Source: an uncultured Candidatus Saccharibacteria bacterium (GTDB lineage: Bacteria; Patescibacteriota; Dojkabacteria; SC72). Taken from it: a stretch of DNA of 64,000 nt. The stretch covers positions 1,059 to 65,058 of the forward strand of contig CAZUOO010000001.1 of assembly GCA_964621555.1 (NCBI GenBank), read 5' to 3'. The notes beneath the pieces were generated by a model. It did not search any database. It saw only the letters and a list, made by a program, of their open reading frames with translations, and was not told where the DNA came from. Each line of letters begins with the position of its first letter. Positions within the stretch are counted from its first letter, which is position 1. Shown here piece by piece: positions 2,161 through 54,436 of the stretch. The translations under genes were made by a program, and so were the position numbers.

Positions 2161-3848
2161 AAGTCGCAGAGCCTATCCTTATTATCTATTTCAAAGATAA
2201 AGAAGCTGTGACCAAGTTCTCGTACTGGTTCAATCTCATTTGCAAAGAATTTATACCTCAAGCATACTTGCCACTGTTCCAACTTCTTAATATTTGTAGA
2301 AAGCATTTCCTTGGGGTATACAACGTAATTTGTATTTTGAAGCTCTCGCTCCTCTCTTTCAAGTAGGTGATTTTCCTGTCTCCAATCAAAATTACTATCC
2401 TGCAAGTATAGGTAATTATATTTCTCCTGTCCTACAACTTGGTTAAAGTATGCAATGTAGATTGGATAGTGAGTAACAGAAAGGAATATATGTGAAGCAA
2501 TTAGTAGTCCAACTGTATATTTATACCAGCTGAGGTTTTTAAACTTCTCGTATAGCGAAACTATTACGAATGCAGATGCAAGGGTTAAAAAAGGATATAC
2601 AGGGAGCAGATGACGTATTCCAATGTTTATTGAACTTGAAAGCGAAAGTAGGGTTAAGACCACAGGAATGGTTATCAAAGGTAGTAAAACGGGCCTCTTG
2701 TTGATTATGTTCTCTCTATTTCTATATGCTAACGCACCCATATATATGGCTGTGAACACACTTATGATGATGAATGGAACAGTTTCCTTCGCAAGAAATG
2801 CTATTGGGAAGTATAGTGGATTTCCTCCATTGCTAGGTTGTCCCAAAAGATATGTTCTGTGCCCGTGGAAATTATGCTTAACCACGTTATCATAGAATCC
2901 TTTAAAGTACTGAGGGAAAGGTAGTTTAACATCTTTATATATTGATTCTAGGAATTCTAGTTTGATAAATGGAACAATCCGCTCAATTGTACTAAGGTGG
3001 TCCATAGTTGCTTCGATCTTACCTGGATTGTTGTAGTCAACTTCATAGATTGTGGCAAAATTAAATCCGTAGGCGGCCGTTAACAGAAAGAGTATTGATA
3101 TAACGATACCTACAGTTGATAGTGCAACCGCTTTTATTGAATGTCCAAAGCTCTTATACCTCACAAATATATACGTAAGTAGCCAAAATGGAAGGAGCAA
3201 TGTGGCCGTATATTTAGTAATTAAAGCTACTAGAATTAAGATGATACTTAGCCATGGTTTATGCTTCGAATTATTCTGCGTTAATCGAAGGTCGTGATAG
3301 AGAGCGAGGGTTGCAAGAAATATTGTAAACATTGCTGGAGCGTCCGTAGTTACTAAACCAGAGTGGGCAATTAGGGTAGGGGAGAATGCTAGAAGGAGTG
3401 TTGATATAACTGTTCGTCTGAAGCCGAAATTAATATAGAGTAGTTGGTAGATTATAAAAAGCATAGTAGCGGAGAGCAACGATGCCGTAAAACGGCCATT
3501 AACTAGAAACTCTAGAGAATATGTTTCTCTTCCTCCATTGAGCTCCACTAATCTGAATGCAATATCATCCTTTTTAGCTTGCTCCCAGTTCTCACTATCA
3601 AGGTCTTCAATTACAAAGCTTTTATCTGCTGAAATTGGTATCGAATGTAATATATTAAAGAGAATAGGGTGGTGCTGGTTTATTCTATAGTCTCCTGTAC
3701 GTAGTAACATAACCCCTCTGGCGGTATGACTCACTTCATCCGTTGTATAGGATAGATCTTTTACAGATCCAAACGAGAGTAAGAAGAATGCTAACGATAT
3801 CGTTAATGGAATTAACAAACGCTTTAGGACAGTTTTAAACTTTGTCAT
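2157..3848 (-). CDS. GT-C fold membrane glycosyltransferase (ArnT/PMT-like, GT39/GT83 family)
   Basis: 563-aa polytopic membrane protein with an ArnT/PMT-like topology. It lies convergent and adjacent to the GT2 and flippase-like genes. Confidence 0.55.
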   Translation of the reverse strand: MTKFKTVLKRLLIPLTISLAFFLLSFGSVKDLSYTTDEVSHTARGVMLLRTGDYRINQHHPILFNILHSIPISADKSFVIEDLDSENWEQAKKDDIAFRLVELNGGRETYSLEFLVNGRFTASLLSATMLFIIYQLLYINFGFRRTVISTLLLAFSPTLIAHSGLVTTDAPAMFTIFLATLALYHDLRLTQNNSKHKPWLSIILILVALITKYTATLLLPFWLLTYIFVRYKSFGHSIKAVALSTVGIVISILFLLTAAYGFNFATIYEVDYNNPGKIEATMDHLSTIERIVPFIKLEFLESIYKDVKLPFPQYFKGFYDNVVKHNFHGHRTYLLGQPSNGGNPLYFPIAFLAKETVPFIIISVFTAIYMGALAYRNRENIINKRPVLLPLITIPVVLTLLSLSSSINIGIRHLLPVYPFLTLASAFVIVSLYEKFKNLSWYKYTVGLLIASHIFLSVTHYPIYIAYFNQVVGQEKYNYLYLQDSNFDWRQENHLLEREERELQNTNYVVYPKEMLSTNIKKLEQWQVCLRYKFFANEIEPVRELGHSFFIFEIDNKDRLCDF

Positions 3849-6063
3849 TACTAATAATTTCAGATTTACTATCTATTGGGTATGTTATATATAGTTGATG
3901 TAGCGCTCTAGTTGCCGCTACATAGAACTTTCTTGCACTACTAAAATTGGCTGGATATAGGTTTATATCTAGATCAAGTATGAATACTGTATCAAACTCC
4001 AATCCTTTCGCATTTAGAACAGGTGTTACGATTATACCAGATGAATAGTTCGAGCTATCCATCTCTACTAAATATTCAGAAATTGTTGGGATTGCTTTAA
4101 GTTTATTGTATACGTTTGATGCTGTTTCCATGTCGGGGGTTACAACTGCGATTGTATTCCTATTTAGTTTTAACTCTATATTTAGATATTTTACGAGATC
4201 ATCGATAGTTGTATCCTCGCTTGTAAGCAATGTACGGGTTGGAATCTCGATCACATCATTACCATGTCTAAGCACGGCCTCGGGTCTAAGAAAAGTTTTA
4301 GGAAATAGATTTTCAACCTTTTCTTTAATATAGTCGATTATTTCAATTGTAGTTCGATAGCATTTATTAAGTTGGTGGTACTCGAATTTTTGCAAATCAG
4401 GTTTTAACTGCTTGAGTGTATCTATTAGTTCAATCCAATCGTCAATATTATTAGGATCCTTGATTGCCTGTGCTAGATCACCCGCCAACATCAAATTATT
4501 ACGCCTTGAAATCAGTAGAAGGGAGAATATCTGAGGGAATGAAAGGTCCTGTGCCTCGTCAGCTATTACATAATCCTTCTGGAACTCTGTCGTACCGTTA
4601 AGAAGAAGGCTTAAGATTGCAAGTGGGGCTAAATCTTCCATTTCATAGGTATAGAATCCCTTTACCTTCCTAACCATTTTCTTTGTTCTTTCCTTTATAT
4701 CACTTGGGATACTCATGTCATTTACAATTGATTTGTAGATATTGAGCAGGTTTAATTTTTCTCTGAAGTATTTAATAATTTTTTCTTCAATTACCTCATC
4801 CAAAATCGAAATTCCTTGCATGTATGATCCAACAGTACTGTTTTTAATTAGTAGGTCGGATTTAACTTTCTCAACTGCTAGCTTTAGAGCTTCGGAAGTT
4901 GTAACTGTATCTGTTTTTCTTTTAATGTCGTAGTAGTTACGTTGTATAAGGTCGGATTTTGAATATGGGATCTCTTCGAGCAGTGTTTCAATGTAATTAT
5001 TGAAGCCTTCTACAAGTGAAACAAGGAACTCTTTAGAACCCTTAAACTTAATGGATTGTCTATCAGGTTTCGCACTAGCAAGTATATATTTATTATCCCA
5101 TTTCAATATTTTCTTTGCCCAGAATAGATATGTGTTGGCCTCTACGCCATCTATGCCTAGAGAGGGGAGCACTCCTGAAATATAATCCAGAAATAGCTTA
5201 TTAGGGGCGATGATTAACGTATTCTTGGCGCTGATGTGTTTTTGATACATGAAGAAAAGGTACGCCAGTCTGTGTAGTACAATTGTTGTTTTACCACTAC
5301 CTGCTACTCCTTGTAGTACGGTTAGTTTATCGATATCATCTCTAATAATTCTATTCTGCTCACCTTGAATTGTAGAAACGATATCTGTTAATTTCTGTCC
5401 TACCTTCTGATTAAGTTGTGAAAGGAGGAATTCATCGGCGGCAGTATTACCTGTTTTGGAATCGTATACATTCTTAATTCTAGCCTTAGAGATCTCTAAC
5501 ATCTTCTTTTCTGTAATGTCTCCTTTCTGGCTACCCATGGGACTTACAAATTCCACATCACTTGTTGGTCCTGAGTTTGTATAGTATAGGTTGGCGATAG
5601 GGGCTCTCCAATCCGTAATAAGTGATGATTTTGTCAACTTATCGAAATATGCAAACTTCCCGATGTATGAAGTGATTTTCCCCGCAGGAAACGTTGAGTC
5701 AGCTTTTCTATTGAATACAATCTTACCAAAGTATGGAACATCTAGAATATCTAGTTCGTGATTTAATCTATTTACACAATCCTGTATCTGTTTAAGTATC
5801 TGATTATATATCTTTACAGCTGCTGATTTATCATCACCAGTTTCATTTTCAACAACTAGTACTTGCTTCTCTAATTCCTTCTCAAGCTCTTCCAAATGGT
5901 TGAGGAGATATTTAATCTGTTCGGTTACAGTTTGAGTTGTAGTTTTGAGGTATGGATACTCTACCTTTATGGTGTCGTTAAGAGGTTCTTTTATATCTGA
6001 ATAATCGGATATAGTATCAACCTTGTTTATTAGGGGATTAAGGTGCTCCTTAAAAGTTAGCAT
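3835..6063 (-). CDS. helD: HelD-like (helicase IV) UvrD-family helicase
   Basis: HelD N-terminal motifs PYFGKIVF, YIGKFAYFD and ITDWRAPIANLYY, followed by Walker A GVAGSGKTT and motif II ADEAQDLS. Confidence 0.75.
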   Translation of the reverse strand: MLTFKEHLNPLINKVDTISDYSDIKEPLNDTIKVEYPYLKTTTQTVTEQIKYLLNHLEELEKELEKQVLVVENETGDDKSAAVKIYNQILKQIQDCVNRLNHELDILDVPYFGKIVFNRKADSTFPAGKITSYIGKFAYFDKLTKSSLITDWRAPIANLYYTNSGPTSDVEFVSPMGSQKGDITEKKMLEISKARIKNVYDSKTGNTAADEFLLSQLNQKVGQKLTDIVSTIQGEQNRIIRDDIDKLTVLQGVAGSGKTTIVLHRLAYLFFMYQKHISAKNTLIIAPNKLFLDYISGVLPSLGIDGVEANTYLFWAKKILKWDNKYILASAKPDRQSIKFKGSKEFLVSLVEGFNNYIETLLEEIPYSKSDLIQRNYYDIKRKTDTVTTSEALKLAVEKVKSDLLIKNSTVGSYMQGISILDEVIEEKIIKYFREKLNLLNIYKSIVNDMSIPSDIKERTKKMVRKVKGFYTYEMEDLAPLAILSLLLNGTTEFQKDYVIADEAQDLSFPQIFSLLLISRRNNLMLAGDLAQAIKDPNNIDDWIELIDTLKQLKPDLQKFEYHQLNKCYRTTIEIIDYIKEKVENLFPKTFLRPEAVLRHGNDVIEIPTRTLLTSEDTTIDDLVKYLNIELKLNRNTIAVVTPDMETASNVYNKLKAIPTISEYLVEMDSSNYSSGIIVTPVLNAKGLEFDTVFILDLDINLYPANFSSARKFYVAATRALHQLYITYPIDSKSEIISNDKV

Positions 6064-6117
6064 TAATGTATTTCTCTTAAGTAAAAGCGAACTGCATTTT
6101 ACAATATAATTAGAGTA

Positions 6118-7179
6118 CTATTCAACTATTTCAGTAATAATTCCTCCACCTACACACTGATCACTATTGTATAGCACAATACTTTGTCCCAATGTCGCAG
6201 CCCATTGCATTTCACTAAATGTGATTAGGGCTCTGCTATTATCTAATTTGAGGTCGGCATTAGTTGGCTTGGCTCGATATCGTATGATACCTGTCATCTT
6301 ATCCGTTTCTTTTACTTTCTCTAGGGAGTGGAATTCCTCGACAATATATTTCGAAGTCCAGAGTTTTTGATGGGATTTACCTTGCGCTACATAGAGGGTA
6401 TTAGCTTCTACGTCTTTAGCACATACGAAATATGGTACCTTTAGACCCCCAATATGTAACCCTTGTCTTTGACCTATGGTATAGAACCATACACCTTTGT
6501 GCTGACCTACAACTTTTCCAGTATCGATATCTACACTATTTCCAACTACCACCTTCAATCTTTGGCTTAGAAATTCTTCAATATCTACTTTCCCTATGAA
6601 GCATATACCCTGACTGTCTTTTCTATTGAAGTTTGGTAATTTAGCTTTTTCTGCAATTTCTCTAACTTCACTTTTTAGTAGGTTGGAGAGAGGGAAAAGA
6701 GTGGAAGATAGTTGTGCATTGGTTAATTGATGGAGAAAGTATGTTTGATCCTTAGTGCTATCTTTAGCATTATATAGCTTTCCATTTATGGTTTTAGCGT
6801 AGTGACCTGTTGCTATAAAATCTGCACCTTCACTAAGTGCCTTGGTGAGAAACTTATCAAATTTAATATACTTATTACAAAGTATATCCGGGCTAGGGGT
6901 GTTTCCGATGCTGTACTGATAGAAGAAATCTTCAATTACAAGCTCTCTATACTCTTTTTCAAAGTTGTATACCTTGAGCTCAATCTGTAAAAAGTCCGCC
7001 ACCTCTCGCGCGGACTTTAAATCTTCTTCCCAGGGACAGTTTTCTGAAATTCCATAATCATTACCTGACCAATTTTTGAGAAAAACTCCTGTTACATCAT
7101 ACCCTTCCTGTTGTAGTAGTAATGCAGCAACTGCACTGTCAACTCCACCAGATAATCCCACAAAAACTTTCTTTCCCAT
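6118..7179 (-). CDS. mnmA: tRNA-specific 2-thiouridylase MnmA
   Basis: N-terminal PP-loop KVFVGLSGGVDSAVAA; length and overall layout match MnmA/TrmU. Confidence 0.85.
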   Translation of the reverse strand: MGKKVFVGLSGGVDSAVAALLLQQEGYDVTGVFLKNWSGNDYGISENCPWEEDLKSAREVADFLQIELKVYNFEKEYRELVIEDFFYQYSIGNTPSPDILCNKYIKFDKFLTKALSEGADFIATGHYAKTINGKLYNAKDSTKDQTYFLHQLTNAQLSSTLFPLSNLLKSEVREIAEKAKLPNFNRKDSQGICFIGKVDIEEFLSQRLKVVVGNSVDIDTGKVVGQHKGVWFYTIGQRQGLHIGGLKVPYFVCAKDVEANTLYVAQGKSHQKLWTSKYIVEEFHSLEKVKETDKMTGIIRYRAKPTNADLKLDNSRALITFSEMQWAATLGQSIVLYNSDQCVGGGIITEIVE

Positions 7180-49917: not shown

Positions 49918-51759
<1,842 letters not shown>

Positions 51760-52674
51760 TTAATTACTAAGAGCTTCGATACCGGAAACAATTTCTGAAA
51801 CCTCCTGAGTTATACTTGCCTGTCTTCCTTTGTTAAAGGTGAGAGTTAAGGAATCTCTAAGATCAGAAGCATTATCAGAAGCGTTCTTCATTGCTATCAT
51901 ACGACTGCTATGTTCACTGGCACTAGATTCTAGTATCGCTTGGTAGATTTTGGTATCGAGGGTTTTGAGAAAAATATACTCTTGTAGCTTGTCCGGGCTT
52001 GGTTCTAGGAGAAAATCATTTTTTAGAGGATCTTCCGCAGGAATATACTCTTCACCTTCTGAATTCTTCTCTGTTACAATATCTTTAAATGGCAATATCT
52101 TATCTATTACAATATTTTGTACCTGTGCAGATTGGAAAGATGTGTATATTAAGATAACTTCATCACACTCGTCTGCCAAATACTTGTCTATAATAGTTCG
52201 AGATACTTCCAAACTCTTCTCATATGATCTAGTCTCATACATTTTCTCGTATATAGAATCAAGTTCGATGCCATTCAACGTCGCTATTTTCGCACCTTTC
52301 TTTCCTAAACTCATTAACTTGATAATTCTATTTGGATCCTCACCACGTACCTCTTTAACATAGTTTGAGACTACATTAATTACATTAGCGTTGAAACTTC
52401 CACATAGCCCACGATCAGAGGTAAGGGCTACGATTAGCGTAGTATCTAAACTTCTCTTGGTAAGAAGAGCAGGGGAGTTGCTATCTACAACGATTGTAGA
52501 TGCAAAACTAGAATTAGTTTCAGAGAGCTCTTTAGTGTACTGCTTCGATTCAAGTGCAAATGTTGAAAATCTAGATCTTTTAACCGCAGAAATCTTTTCC
52601 ATCGATCTAGTTACCTTATTAGTATTCTTAACCGAATTGATCCTATTTTTAATTGCCTTGGTATTAATACTCAT
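51760..52674 (-). CDS. atpG: F0F1 ATP synthase gamma subunit
   Basis: [26 protein letters not shown]-terminus. The start is trimmed to [12 protein letters not shown] from the longer track ORF. Confidence 0.85.
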
Positions 52675-54436
52675 CGTTTGCAAAGAATTCTTTACACACA
52701 TTATCTAGCAAAGATTCAATTTCTTCAGACCATTCTCCAGTTGAAAGTCTCTCCATCAATTTGCCATGCTTCTTTCCAACATACTCAATTAATGATTTCT
52801 CTTTTTTCTGTACACTAGCTCCATCTATCTCATCAAAAAAGCCATTATTAACAGCATATATGGATAGAACTTGAGATGCCAGTGGGAATGGTGAGTACTG
52901 ATTTTGCTTTAGAATTTCAATTGTCTTTTGCCCTCTATTTAGCTGTGCCTTAGTTCCAGAGTCTAAATCTCCTGAAAACTGTGCAAATGCTTCAAGCTCT
53001 CTAAACTGTGCGAGGGATATTTTAATCTTTCCTGCAACCTTTTTCATAGCTTTAGTTTGTGCAGCTCCACCAACCCTAGATACAGACAGTCCTACGTTAA
53101 TAGCAGGCCTAATACCTTTGTTAAAGAGGTTGCTTTCGAGAAAAATCTGCCCGTCGGTAATGGAGATTACATTTGTAGGGACATAGGCACTAATATCTCC
53201 TGCCTGAGTCTCAATGATAGGGAGGGAAGTTATAGATCCACCACCTAATTCATTATTATATTTAACTGATCTCTCAAGTAGTCTGGAATGCAAGTAGAAG
53301 ACATCACCTGGGAATGCTTCACGACCTGGTGGTCTTCTTAGTAGTAGTGAGACTTCTCTATATGCAACAGCATGCTTAGAAAGGTCATCATAGATTACTA
53401 ATACATCTTTTCCTTTATCTGCAAAGTATTCTGCAATTGCGGTGGCACTATATGGAGCCAAGTATAGTAGGGGAGCTGGGTCAGATGCACCTGCAGCAAC
53501 AACAATCGTATTCTTTAGGGCATCGTTACTTCTTAGCCTTTCAACAATATTTACAACCTTAGACATTTTCTGACCAATTGCAACATAAATGGAGATAACT
53601 CCACTATCTTTCTGGTTAATAATTGTATCAATTGCAAGAGTTGTCTTACCTGTTTGCCTATCTCCAAGGATCAACTCTCTCTGCCCTTTACCAATAGGAA
53701 CGAGAACATCAATAGCTTTAATACCTGTTTGAAGAGGCTGAAATACAGGTTGCCTATCTAACACCCCTAAAGCAAGCTTTTCCACAGGGTATGATTTAGA
53801 AAGGCTTAACTTCTCACCACTATCAATTGTATTTCCAAGTGGATCCAAAACTCTTCCGAGAAGTTCTTCACCTACAGGTACAGATACAACCTTTTGAGTA
53901 CGGGTAACGGTATCGCCGACCTTAACCTTAGTATAATCACCTAATATGATTGCTCCAACACCTTCTGCCTCAAGGTTAAAAGCGATTGCTTTAATTCCAT
54001 TTTTAAACTCAAGAATTTCCTGATACATAGTACCTGATAGTCCTTCTATCATACAGATACCGTCTTTAAGTGTAGTTGTAACTCCAACCTCGTTCTCATC
54101 TGCCACAGGTGTAAATGCCCCCGTTGTTTTGGCGACCTGATCTACAACGTCGGCATTTTCGTCTAAGGCACTGGAACTTATCAAATCACCAAGTTGTTCT
54201 AATTTACTCCTGTATGATTCATCAAGAACTGTATCACCAACCTTAATTATATGCCCACCAAGCAAAGTTTTATCCTCACGAACAACAACTTTTGCAGAAG
54301 GGTGAATATTTCGTATCTCGTCCTGAAGATGTTTGCTGCTGATTAAAGAATATACTGATAATTCCACCAACATAGAATCATCGTAGGGAGTTTCTTTTAG
54401 AAAAGTATTGATATCTTTCATGTCTTTATCCTTCAA
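52664..54436 (-). CDS. atpA: F0F1 ATP synthase alpha subunit with an in-frame N-terminal ~84-aa segment matching the C-terminal domain of the delta (OSCP) subunit (apparent truncated atpH fused to atpA)
   Basis: Residues 45-84 ([36 protein letters not shown]) match the delta C-terminus. The alpha N-terminal barrel starts immediately after, with no intervening stop or ATG. P-loop GDRQTGKT. Confidence 0.8.

Follow-up and report, generated by a model that had tools for sequence, protein, structure and literature searches.

An F-type ATP synthase subunit alpha carrying the C-terminal domain of subunit delta in a Dojkabacteria-like bacterium of the candidate phyla radiation

The stretch of DNA analyzed here (64,000 nucleotides of contig CAZUOO010000001.1, positions 1,059 to 65,058; hereafter the window) comes from an uncultured lineage of the candidate phyla radiation (CPR) and carries, on the minus strand at about 49.9 to 56.2 kb, an F-type ATP synthase operon. 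According to the list of open reading frames (ORFs), Pfam and NCBIfam, the genes stand in the order I-a-c-b-fusion-gamma-beta-epsilon, where the gene between b and gamma (atpH'-atpA) joins the C-terminal domain of the stator subunit delta in frame to subunit alpha. We call its product a deltaΔN-alpha fusion. The operon carries single a and b genes in their usual order, and atpF, its sole b gene, has no delta part and only the PF00430 domain by Pfam and NCBIfam.

An initial annotation, made from the letters and the ORF list, had described ORF 52664..54436 as a delta subunit reduced to its C-terminal domain and fused to alpha, and both this ORF and the 34-residue delta block quoted there are present in the translation. 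The mechanical ORF comprises 590 aa from a TTG at 54436. While the ORF itself is real, translation most likely begins with the ATG at 54421, yielding a protein of 585 aa with the N-terminus MKDINTF, because this position agrees with the N-termini of relatives and lies 4 nt past the atpF stop, where most relatives have gaps of 1 to 4 nt. A database entry of 585 aa (P0001) is 100% identical to the fusion protein. Four Pfam domains follow each other within the single ORF, which together with TIGR00962 bears out the in-frame fusion to alpha. The first is OSCP (PF00213), matched by residues 38-83 (590-aa numbering) over profile positions 122-169 of 172 with 29.3 bits at a cut-off of 22.3 (29.3-32.9 bits across scans, with profile positions from 121 at the earliest to 169), and it is followed by ATP-synt_ab_N, ATP-synt_ab and ATP-synt_ab_C (PF02874, PF00006 and PF00306). 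TIGR00962 (atpA) matches from residue 95 over model positions 5-499 of 503 with 726.7 bits (cut-off 484.45), the alpha part contains the Walker A motif GDRQTGKT, and alpha subunits in the PDB match it at E ~1e-185.

The delta part is confined to one domain, as had been proposed, and the same holds across the clade of relatives. In the Pfam scan, positions 1-120 of the OSCP profile are unmatched by the fusion protein, so the N-terminal helical bundle of delta is missing, and only the C-terminal domain of E. coli delta (residues 103-176 of 177) aligns to a profile of the N-terminal 130 aa. Judged from this alignment, the N-terminal piece is the whole delta C-terminal domain and includes none of the bundle. 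An AlphaFold2 (AF2) model of residues 1-130, with a predicted local distance difference test score (pLDDT) of 79.6, shows a short helix, a four-stranded sheet and two helices (helix 2-10, strand 18-23, helix 27-39, strands 44-49, 57-61 and 64-67, helix 70-83), with only about 16 residues ahead of the first strand. Foldseek matches this model to the delta/OSCP C-terminal domains of Chloroflexus, mycobacteria, bovine and E. coli enzymes in the PDB. The initial annotation had the delta part run directly into the beta-barrel of alpha; no stop codon intervenes, as stated there, but a helix at residues 92-101 that corresponds to the N-terminal helix of alpha precedes the barrel, and the junction segment aligns to residues 4-46 of solved alphas.

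A separate delta gene was not found in the window. The ORF list shows no atpH between atpF and the fusion gene, in line with the initial annotation, and a hidden Markov model (HMM) built from 45 full-length deltas and run on the six-frame translation of the window recovered only the fusion N-terminus (E=9e-9, HMM positions 135-178 of 181), with every other match in the 64 kb at E>0.1.

The fusion is a shared feature of a group of related proteins. A whole-protein search retrieved at least 19 proteins of 574-593 aa in which PF00213 stands together with the alpha domains; they share 53-97% identity with the window protein and were drawn from NCBI, JGI, ENA and Logan assemblies. A comparison of related atp operons, which the initial annotation had suggested, showed the order a-c-b-fusion-gamma-beta(-epsilon) in all five operons of relatives (L081/L082, L083, L084, L085 and L086), each of them lacking atpH. 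The alignment of the N-terminal 130 residues of 19 sequences (alignment A1) is nearly gap-free across the junction, whose conserved length differs by indels of no more than 1 residue. N-terminal identity to the window protein is 19-50% among these sequences, save for one near-twin at 93%, and the delta signature is kept, with G56 and D63 at least 90% conserved and L77 invariant. On these comparisons a chance origin of the open frame is excluded, since the frame is open and its length near-constant in 19 sequences despite the low N-terminal identity. The N-terminal 144 aa by themselves gave no match in a phmmer-type search, nor did the A1 profile at E<=1e-5 in a collection of 5.8 billion proteins, because the delta part is too divergent for a database of that size. 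Altogether, we are nearly certain that the fusion is genuine and translated as a single chain or nearly so.

Two further proteins deserve mention in this context. A 749-aa "alpha" ORF at L033 was rejected as an over-extended ORF in high-GC DNA, with a normal delta of 177 aa in another frame. Separately, a JGI fragment of 453 aa (P0174) runs from the N-terminal half of a deltaΔN-alpha protein into an SRP54 GTPase domain and is probably an assembly chimera.

Table 1. Features of the atp operon and of the fusion gene in the window (positions of the window; residue numbers of the fusion protein in 585-aa numbering unless the row says otherwise).
Feature	Position	Strand	Basis
atpI-like small membrane protein, 83 aa	55910..56161	-	weak PF09527 match, 22.8 bits, under cut-off
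atpB, subunit a, 260 aa	55128..55910	-	ORF; position orthologous to PF00119 genes of L083-L086
atpE, subunit c, 71 aa	54892..55107	-	E25 ... E58-S59-T60 ... Y63 motif
atpF, subunit b, 148 aa	54426..54872	-	Pfam ATP-synt_B 61.4 bits; TIGR01144 77.5 bits
deltaΔN-alpha fusion gene (atpH'-atpA), 585 codons + stop	52664..54421	-	Pfam, TIGR00962, N-termini of relatives
delta/OSCP C-terminal domain, residues 1-85	54167..54421	-	Pfam, E. coli delta alignment, AF2, Foldseek
in-frame TTG (Leu) at the junction, codon 85 of the ORF	54182..54184	-	codon scan, alignment A1
junction and retained alpha N-terminal helix, residues 86-108	54098..54166	-	alignment A1, model helix 92-101
alpha proper: beta-barrel, nucleotide-binding domain, C-terminal helical domain	52667..54097	-	Pfam, TIGR00962, PDB alphas
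atpG, subunit gamma	51760..52674	-	Pfam ATP-synt 256.6 bits from residue 13
atpD, subunit beta	50362..51750	-	ORF, translation with Walker A GGAGVGKT
atpC, subunit epsilon, 151 aa	49914..50369	-	ORF; operon position as in L081, L084 and L085

The neighboring genes are those of an ordinary atp operon (Table 1). For atpG, the probable start reads MSINTK, and the mechanical ORF reaches further, to 52701. The end of the fusion gene overlaps this probable start by 11 nt (52664..52674), and the recurrence of the same overlap in L083 and L084 suggests that translation of the fusion gene and of gamma is coupled in a conserved manner. An Rfam scan gave no match near the atp operon, and the window holds just three tRNAs.

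The c subunit encoded upstream of the fusion gene points to the coupling ion of the enzyme. Its residues E25, E58, S59, T60 and Y63 correspond, at a constant offset of 7 anchored on the loop R-N/Q-P, to Glu32, Glu65, Ser66, Thr67 and Tyr70 of Fusobacterium, and the two-carboxylate Na+ site has been defined structurally in Fusobacterium nucleatum (PMC3692424). A Glu at the position of Ilyobacter Gln32 together with ESTAIY (E-S-T-x-x-Y) in helix 2 is present in the window, L081, L083-L086 and L089, and the H+-type pattern (Ile plus EAIAIY) in 5 of the 7 unfused CPR loci. The two-carboxylate motif suggests that the enzyme is coupled to Na+. Helix 1 of the fused clade has bulkier residues (SMMATPIAEAS) in place of the GxGxGxG packing motif; elsewhere among c subunits, bulkier packing residues of helix 1 accompany a larger ring. 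The idea that an Na+-type c subunit constantly accompanies delta-alpha fusions was discarded, as the c subunits at two further fusion loci (L087 and L088) are without the motif.

Unfused relatives place this architecture in a wider trend. Our survey covered 80 loci from species-representative genomes, in which the delta of ordinary bacteria measures about 175-190 aa. Free deltas of just 115-133 aa are encoded at eight of these loci (L001, L002, L003, L006, L027, L032, L043 and L079), and seven of the eight records are titled CPR or unclassified bacteria, with L079 binned as Pseudomonadales. Because the short unfused deltas at L002 (4773..5174) and L006 (4794..5141), the only two scanned, begin at OSCP profile positions 55 and 82, respectively, the delta N-terminal domain by this measure is already eroding in the CPR radiation, with about half of it gone in the short deltas. 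These short CPR deltas also recall the shortened delta N-terminal domain of the two-stalk Chloroflexus enzyme that is discussed below.

In a neighbor-joining tree of alpha cores, the fused proteins adjoin alphas of WS6/Dojkabacteria, and one fused fragment (P0126) is annotated as Candidatus Dojkabacteria. In 86 of 100 bootstraps, the CPR fused clade excludes the fusions from Firmicutes, and the alpha core of one of them (Christensenellaceae P0224, L088) is 51-55% identical to that of the window protein, compared to 61-64% for unfused alphas of WS6/Dojkabacteria. Together, this exclusion and the lower alpha-core identity suggest that the Firmicutes and CPR fusions arose independently. Monophyly of the CPR fused group together with P0021, the alpha of locus L089, is weakly supported (35 of 100 neighbor-joining bootstraps); the shared junction and c-subunit motif suggest, without proving it, that the fusion originated once within the CPR.

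When 1.84 billion cluster representatives were searched exhaustively with a profile, 7266 matched at E<=1e-3, and we considered the best 150 of these. Further deltaΔN-alpha proteins are found among these best 150 of 7266, such as P0224 (594 aa, 17 cluster members), which is encoded by a gut Firmicutes locus (L088 3954..5738) and is 48% identical to the window protein. The same 150 matches include fusions of a full-length delta to alpha (P0137 with 676 aa and P0271 of Erysipelotrichaceae with 689 aa), and a genome scan uncovered another one of 677 aa in a metagenome-assembled genome (MAG) of Ruminococcus sp. (L053 4695..6728). Several lineages of Firmicutes hence have an in-frame fusion of alpha to a delta that retains its N-terminal domain. 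At two of these loci we noted unusual c subunits: the Ruminococcus operon has tandem genes for identical c subunits of 73 aa (L053 3729..3950 and 3965..4186), and L088 encodes one of 125 aa with a long N-terminal extension that resembles a signal or leader segment (3053..3430).

Yet another arrangement is seen in P0254 (745 aa, 23 cluster members; L087 6001..8238), in which a b-like segment precedes a delta C-terminal domain (residues 157-230) and a full alpha. The N-terminus has a b-like transmembrane helix and coiled coil with a weak PF00430 match at residues 3-99, and the protein looks like a triple fusion b-delta-alpha. The operon at L087 also encodes a free b of 138 aa. Such a triple fusion would tether every alpha to the membrane, implying three stalks, and is the strongest natural hint of three-stalk F-ATPases that we noted, though in another lineage.

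How might an ATP synthase built with the window protein work? The b-binding C-terminal domain of delta and a complete alpha would make up one polypeptide, connected by a short conserved linker, with loss of the N-terminal helical bundle that in ordinary enzymes sits on the three-fold axis of alpha3beta3 and grips the N-termini of alpha. The covalent link would then take over the anchoring role of the lost domain, and since every alpha carries its own delta C-terminal domain, the F1 head would offer three equivalent docking sites for b2. With the symmetry axis free, two or even three b2-a stalks could probably assemble. The ions translocated per turn of the c-ring should scale with the number of a subunits, lowering the ion-motive force needed for ATP synthesis.

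A precedent exists in an engineered Bacillus PS3 enzyme (9jc1), in which residues 2-104 of delta were deleted and the rest was fused to alpha (Ueno et al., Nat Commun 2025, PMC12229609). This enzyme assembles and works, showing up to three b2 stalks with three a subunits by cryo-EM, and has an H+/ATP ratio of 5.8 instead of 3.0 and an equilibrium proton-motive force of 68 instead of 133 mV (PMC12229609). Its authors proposed that the delta N-terminal domain, lying on the pseudo-three-fold axis, restricts F-ATP synthases to one stalk (PMC12229609). The conjecture in the initial annotation that a covalent link could make this domain dispensable agrees with the behavior of the engineered fusion. 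Its stoichiometry puzzle, namely what three alpha-borne delta domains per complex would do, stands as posed and has a published candidate answer, as each of them may hold a b2-a stalk of its own, giving as many as three per enzyme (PMC12229609). By analogy, because of the three equivalent docking sites, we regard it as on balance probable that the enzyme needs no free delta and forms multi-stalk complexes in vivo, both parts taken together. More tentatively, we consider it possible, though the less probable case, that the enzyme is natively Na+-coupled with two to three stalks, an equal number of a subunits and an ion/ATP ratio two to three times above c/3, and that in its clade an erosion of the delta N-terminal domain running through the whole CPR has reached its end (from about 180 aa via about 130 aa to the C-terminal domain only). 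As with translation into a single chain, we infer the stalk number in vivo, the ion/ATP ratio and the ion species.

Several points weigh against a multi-stalk enzyme built from an obligate fusion protein. Stalk number is set by the amounts of a and b and is not readable from sequence, and most cryo-EM particles of the engineered enzyme have fewer than three stalks, with single-stalk particles common (PMC12229609). Confidence in the AF2 models is no more than moderate (pLDDT 76-80), and the absence of a free atpH covers the operon and the 64-kb window, so that a full-length atpH is possible elsewhere in the genome. Finally, locus L089, the P0021 of which nests with the CPR fused clade in the alpha tree, shows a separate ORF for a delta C-terminal domain of 79 aa (4765..5004) and an alpha ORF (5001..6569) that overlap by ATGA. 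The contig is labelled with 2x coverage and its atpB is fragmented; this locus may represent a viable two-protein arrangement, a true split or intermediate, or an indel error.

The best-surviving alternative is an enzyme with a single stalk, in which the fusion serves only as an anchor, b2 is bound by just one alpha-borne delta C-terminal domain, leaving the other two without a partner, in a bacterium with a streamlined genome. In its favor are the general shortening of delta in the CPR, which is seen in the eight unfused loci described above and fits reductive evolution, the single a and b genes in usual order, and the common single-stalk particles of the engineered enzyme. However, that enzyme gained its extra stalks spontaneously, with a mean of about two per complex by SDS-PAGE (PMC12229609), no sequence feature of the natural fusion blocks two of three identical sites, and all three copies of the delta C-terminal domain are under the same selection. 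We therefore consider the single-stalk alternative unlikely, but it is the one to be taken most seriously.

It is considerably less probable that the ORF gives rise to two products, a free delta C-terminal domain and a normal alpha, either by initiation at or near the junction (e.g., at TTG 54184) or by proteolysis, in which case a complex would need just one delta C-terminal domain. The initial annotation had raised initiation at this in-frame TTG and remarked on its poor ribosome-binding context, and the codon indeed exists at the junction as codon 85 (TTG85) without a Shine-Dalgarno sequence at usable spacing. Scoring of Shine-Dalgarno sequences is uninformative in this clade, where true starts mostly have no match, and we instead used the presence or absence of start codons. 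The TTG85 column is variable among relatives (G, H, N, S and others), the 19 aligned sequences share no Met at the junction, and scans at the DNA level found no in-frame ATG, GTG or TTG from codon 40 to 114 in L084 and from codon 76 to 131 in L083. Given these start-codon gaps and the variable column, the aligned genes do not conserve a start of alpha at the junction, and initiation at the TTG is not supported. The split ORFs of L089 would be in keeping with two products, but an indel is plausible on that contig.

An assembly or sequencing artefact, in which a truncated atpH and atpA of a MAG were run together through a frameshift or the loss of a stop codon, has a general basis in the metagenome-type assembly and in the frequent errors behind fusions seen in single genomes, as in the ORF at L033, but is effectively refuted because independent NCBI, JGI, ENA and Logan assemblies share the architecture at identities as low as 53%, the junction keeping its length, and because the delta N-terminal domain is wholly missing instead of just being out of frame.

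For a multi-stalk enzyme, the implications would be considerable. F-type ATP synthases have long been viewed as machines with one peripheral stalk and one a subunit, in which the size of the c-ring alone sets the ion/ATP ratio. This view was broken twice in 2025, by the engineered fusion (PMC12229609) and by the two-stalk enzyme of Chloroflexus (PMC12002316). So far, natural counterparts of the engineered design had only been pointed out in a few Firmicutes, and within the literature collection searched we found no paper linking Patescibacteria, ATP synthase and peripheral stalks and no follow-up literature on natural multi-stalk enzymes. Here, an uncultured CPR lineage has fixed and kept the same design, together with an Na+-type c subunit and unfused relatives with shortened deltas, providing a natural evolutionary series for asking whether stalk number is a tunable bioenergetic parameter. 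If our reading is true, such enzymes could make ATP from a very small sodium-motive force or act as very low-gear pumps, which may help explain how tiny fermentative epibionts with weakly energized membranes use an ATP synthase, and multi-stalk F-ATPases could be common among ultra-small, energy-limited bacteria. Being compact, the operon could be expressed in a heterologous host.

Among known systems, V/A-type ATPases offer an analogy in working principle, as their two or three EG stalks each have their own site on the head and leave the axis free (PMC12002316), but they use unrelated stalk proteins and a single a subunit, and we claim no membership in this group. Mycobacterial atpFH (PDB 7jg5_d) is likewise a stator fusion that involves delta and has a homologous delta C-terminal domain; in contrast to the window, where b is separate, its delta is fused to b, keeps the N-terminal domain and supports one stalk, and the window lacks a b-delta fusion of this type (NF009961, 52.2 bits against a cut-off of 328). 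The F1Fo of Chloroflexus aurantiacus combines a shortened delta N-terminal domain with two stalks and two a subunits (PNAS 2025, PMC12002316; PDB 9itj). It resembles the window enzyme in the reduction of this domain, and its delta C-terminal domain is among the top fold matches, but the Chloroflexus delta is a free protein of 157 aa that dimerizes via a four-helix N-terminal domain, whereas in the window this domain is gone and the attachment is covalent.

Closer still are the natural fusions of Acidaminococcus, noted by the authors of the engineered enzyme with the prediction of multiple stalks (PMC12229609). Acidaminococcus fermentans D2RLW6, and also G4Q3K6 and A0A1I2C5T3 (PMC12229609), share the fusion of a delta without N-terminal domain to alpha, but these are Negativicutes within the Firmicutes and thus belong to a phylum other than that of the window organism. 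The closest known counterpart is the engineered PS3 fusion. Among PDB chains, the N-terminal profile matches 9jc1_I (580 aa) best, at E=5e-15; this chain is annotated as "ATP synthase delta subunit, ATP synthase subunit alpha", and the alignment continues from the delta C-terminal domain via the junction into the barrel with one 3-residue insertion at the GGSGGS-type linker. Searching with the full protein, phmmer aligns residues 50-562 to 42-556 of 9jc1_I in a single stretch. In Foldseek, 9jc1 chains are the top matches for both the N-terminal and the full-length model, the latter over 571-579 columns compared to about 470-520 for ordinary alphas. The window fusion is near residue-for-residue equivalent to this engineered protein: the delta N-terminal domain is gone and the C-terminal domain stands at the N-terminus of a complete alpha, at 585 and 580 aa, respectively. 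The PS3 fusion differs in being man-made, with a linker 3 residues longer, from a Bacillus and part of an H+-coupled enzyme with a c10 ring; for that enzyme, several stalks and a doubling of the H+/ATP ratio were measured, whereas for the window enzyme we infer both. In architecture, as read from its sequence, the window protein groups with the deltaΔN-alpha fused F-ATP synthases, a kind already known from work of 2025, to which the window probably adds an independently evolved, Dojkabacteria-like member from the CPR.

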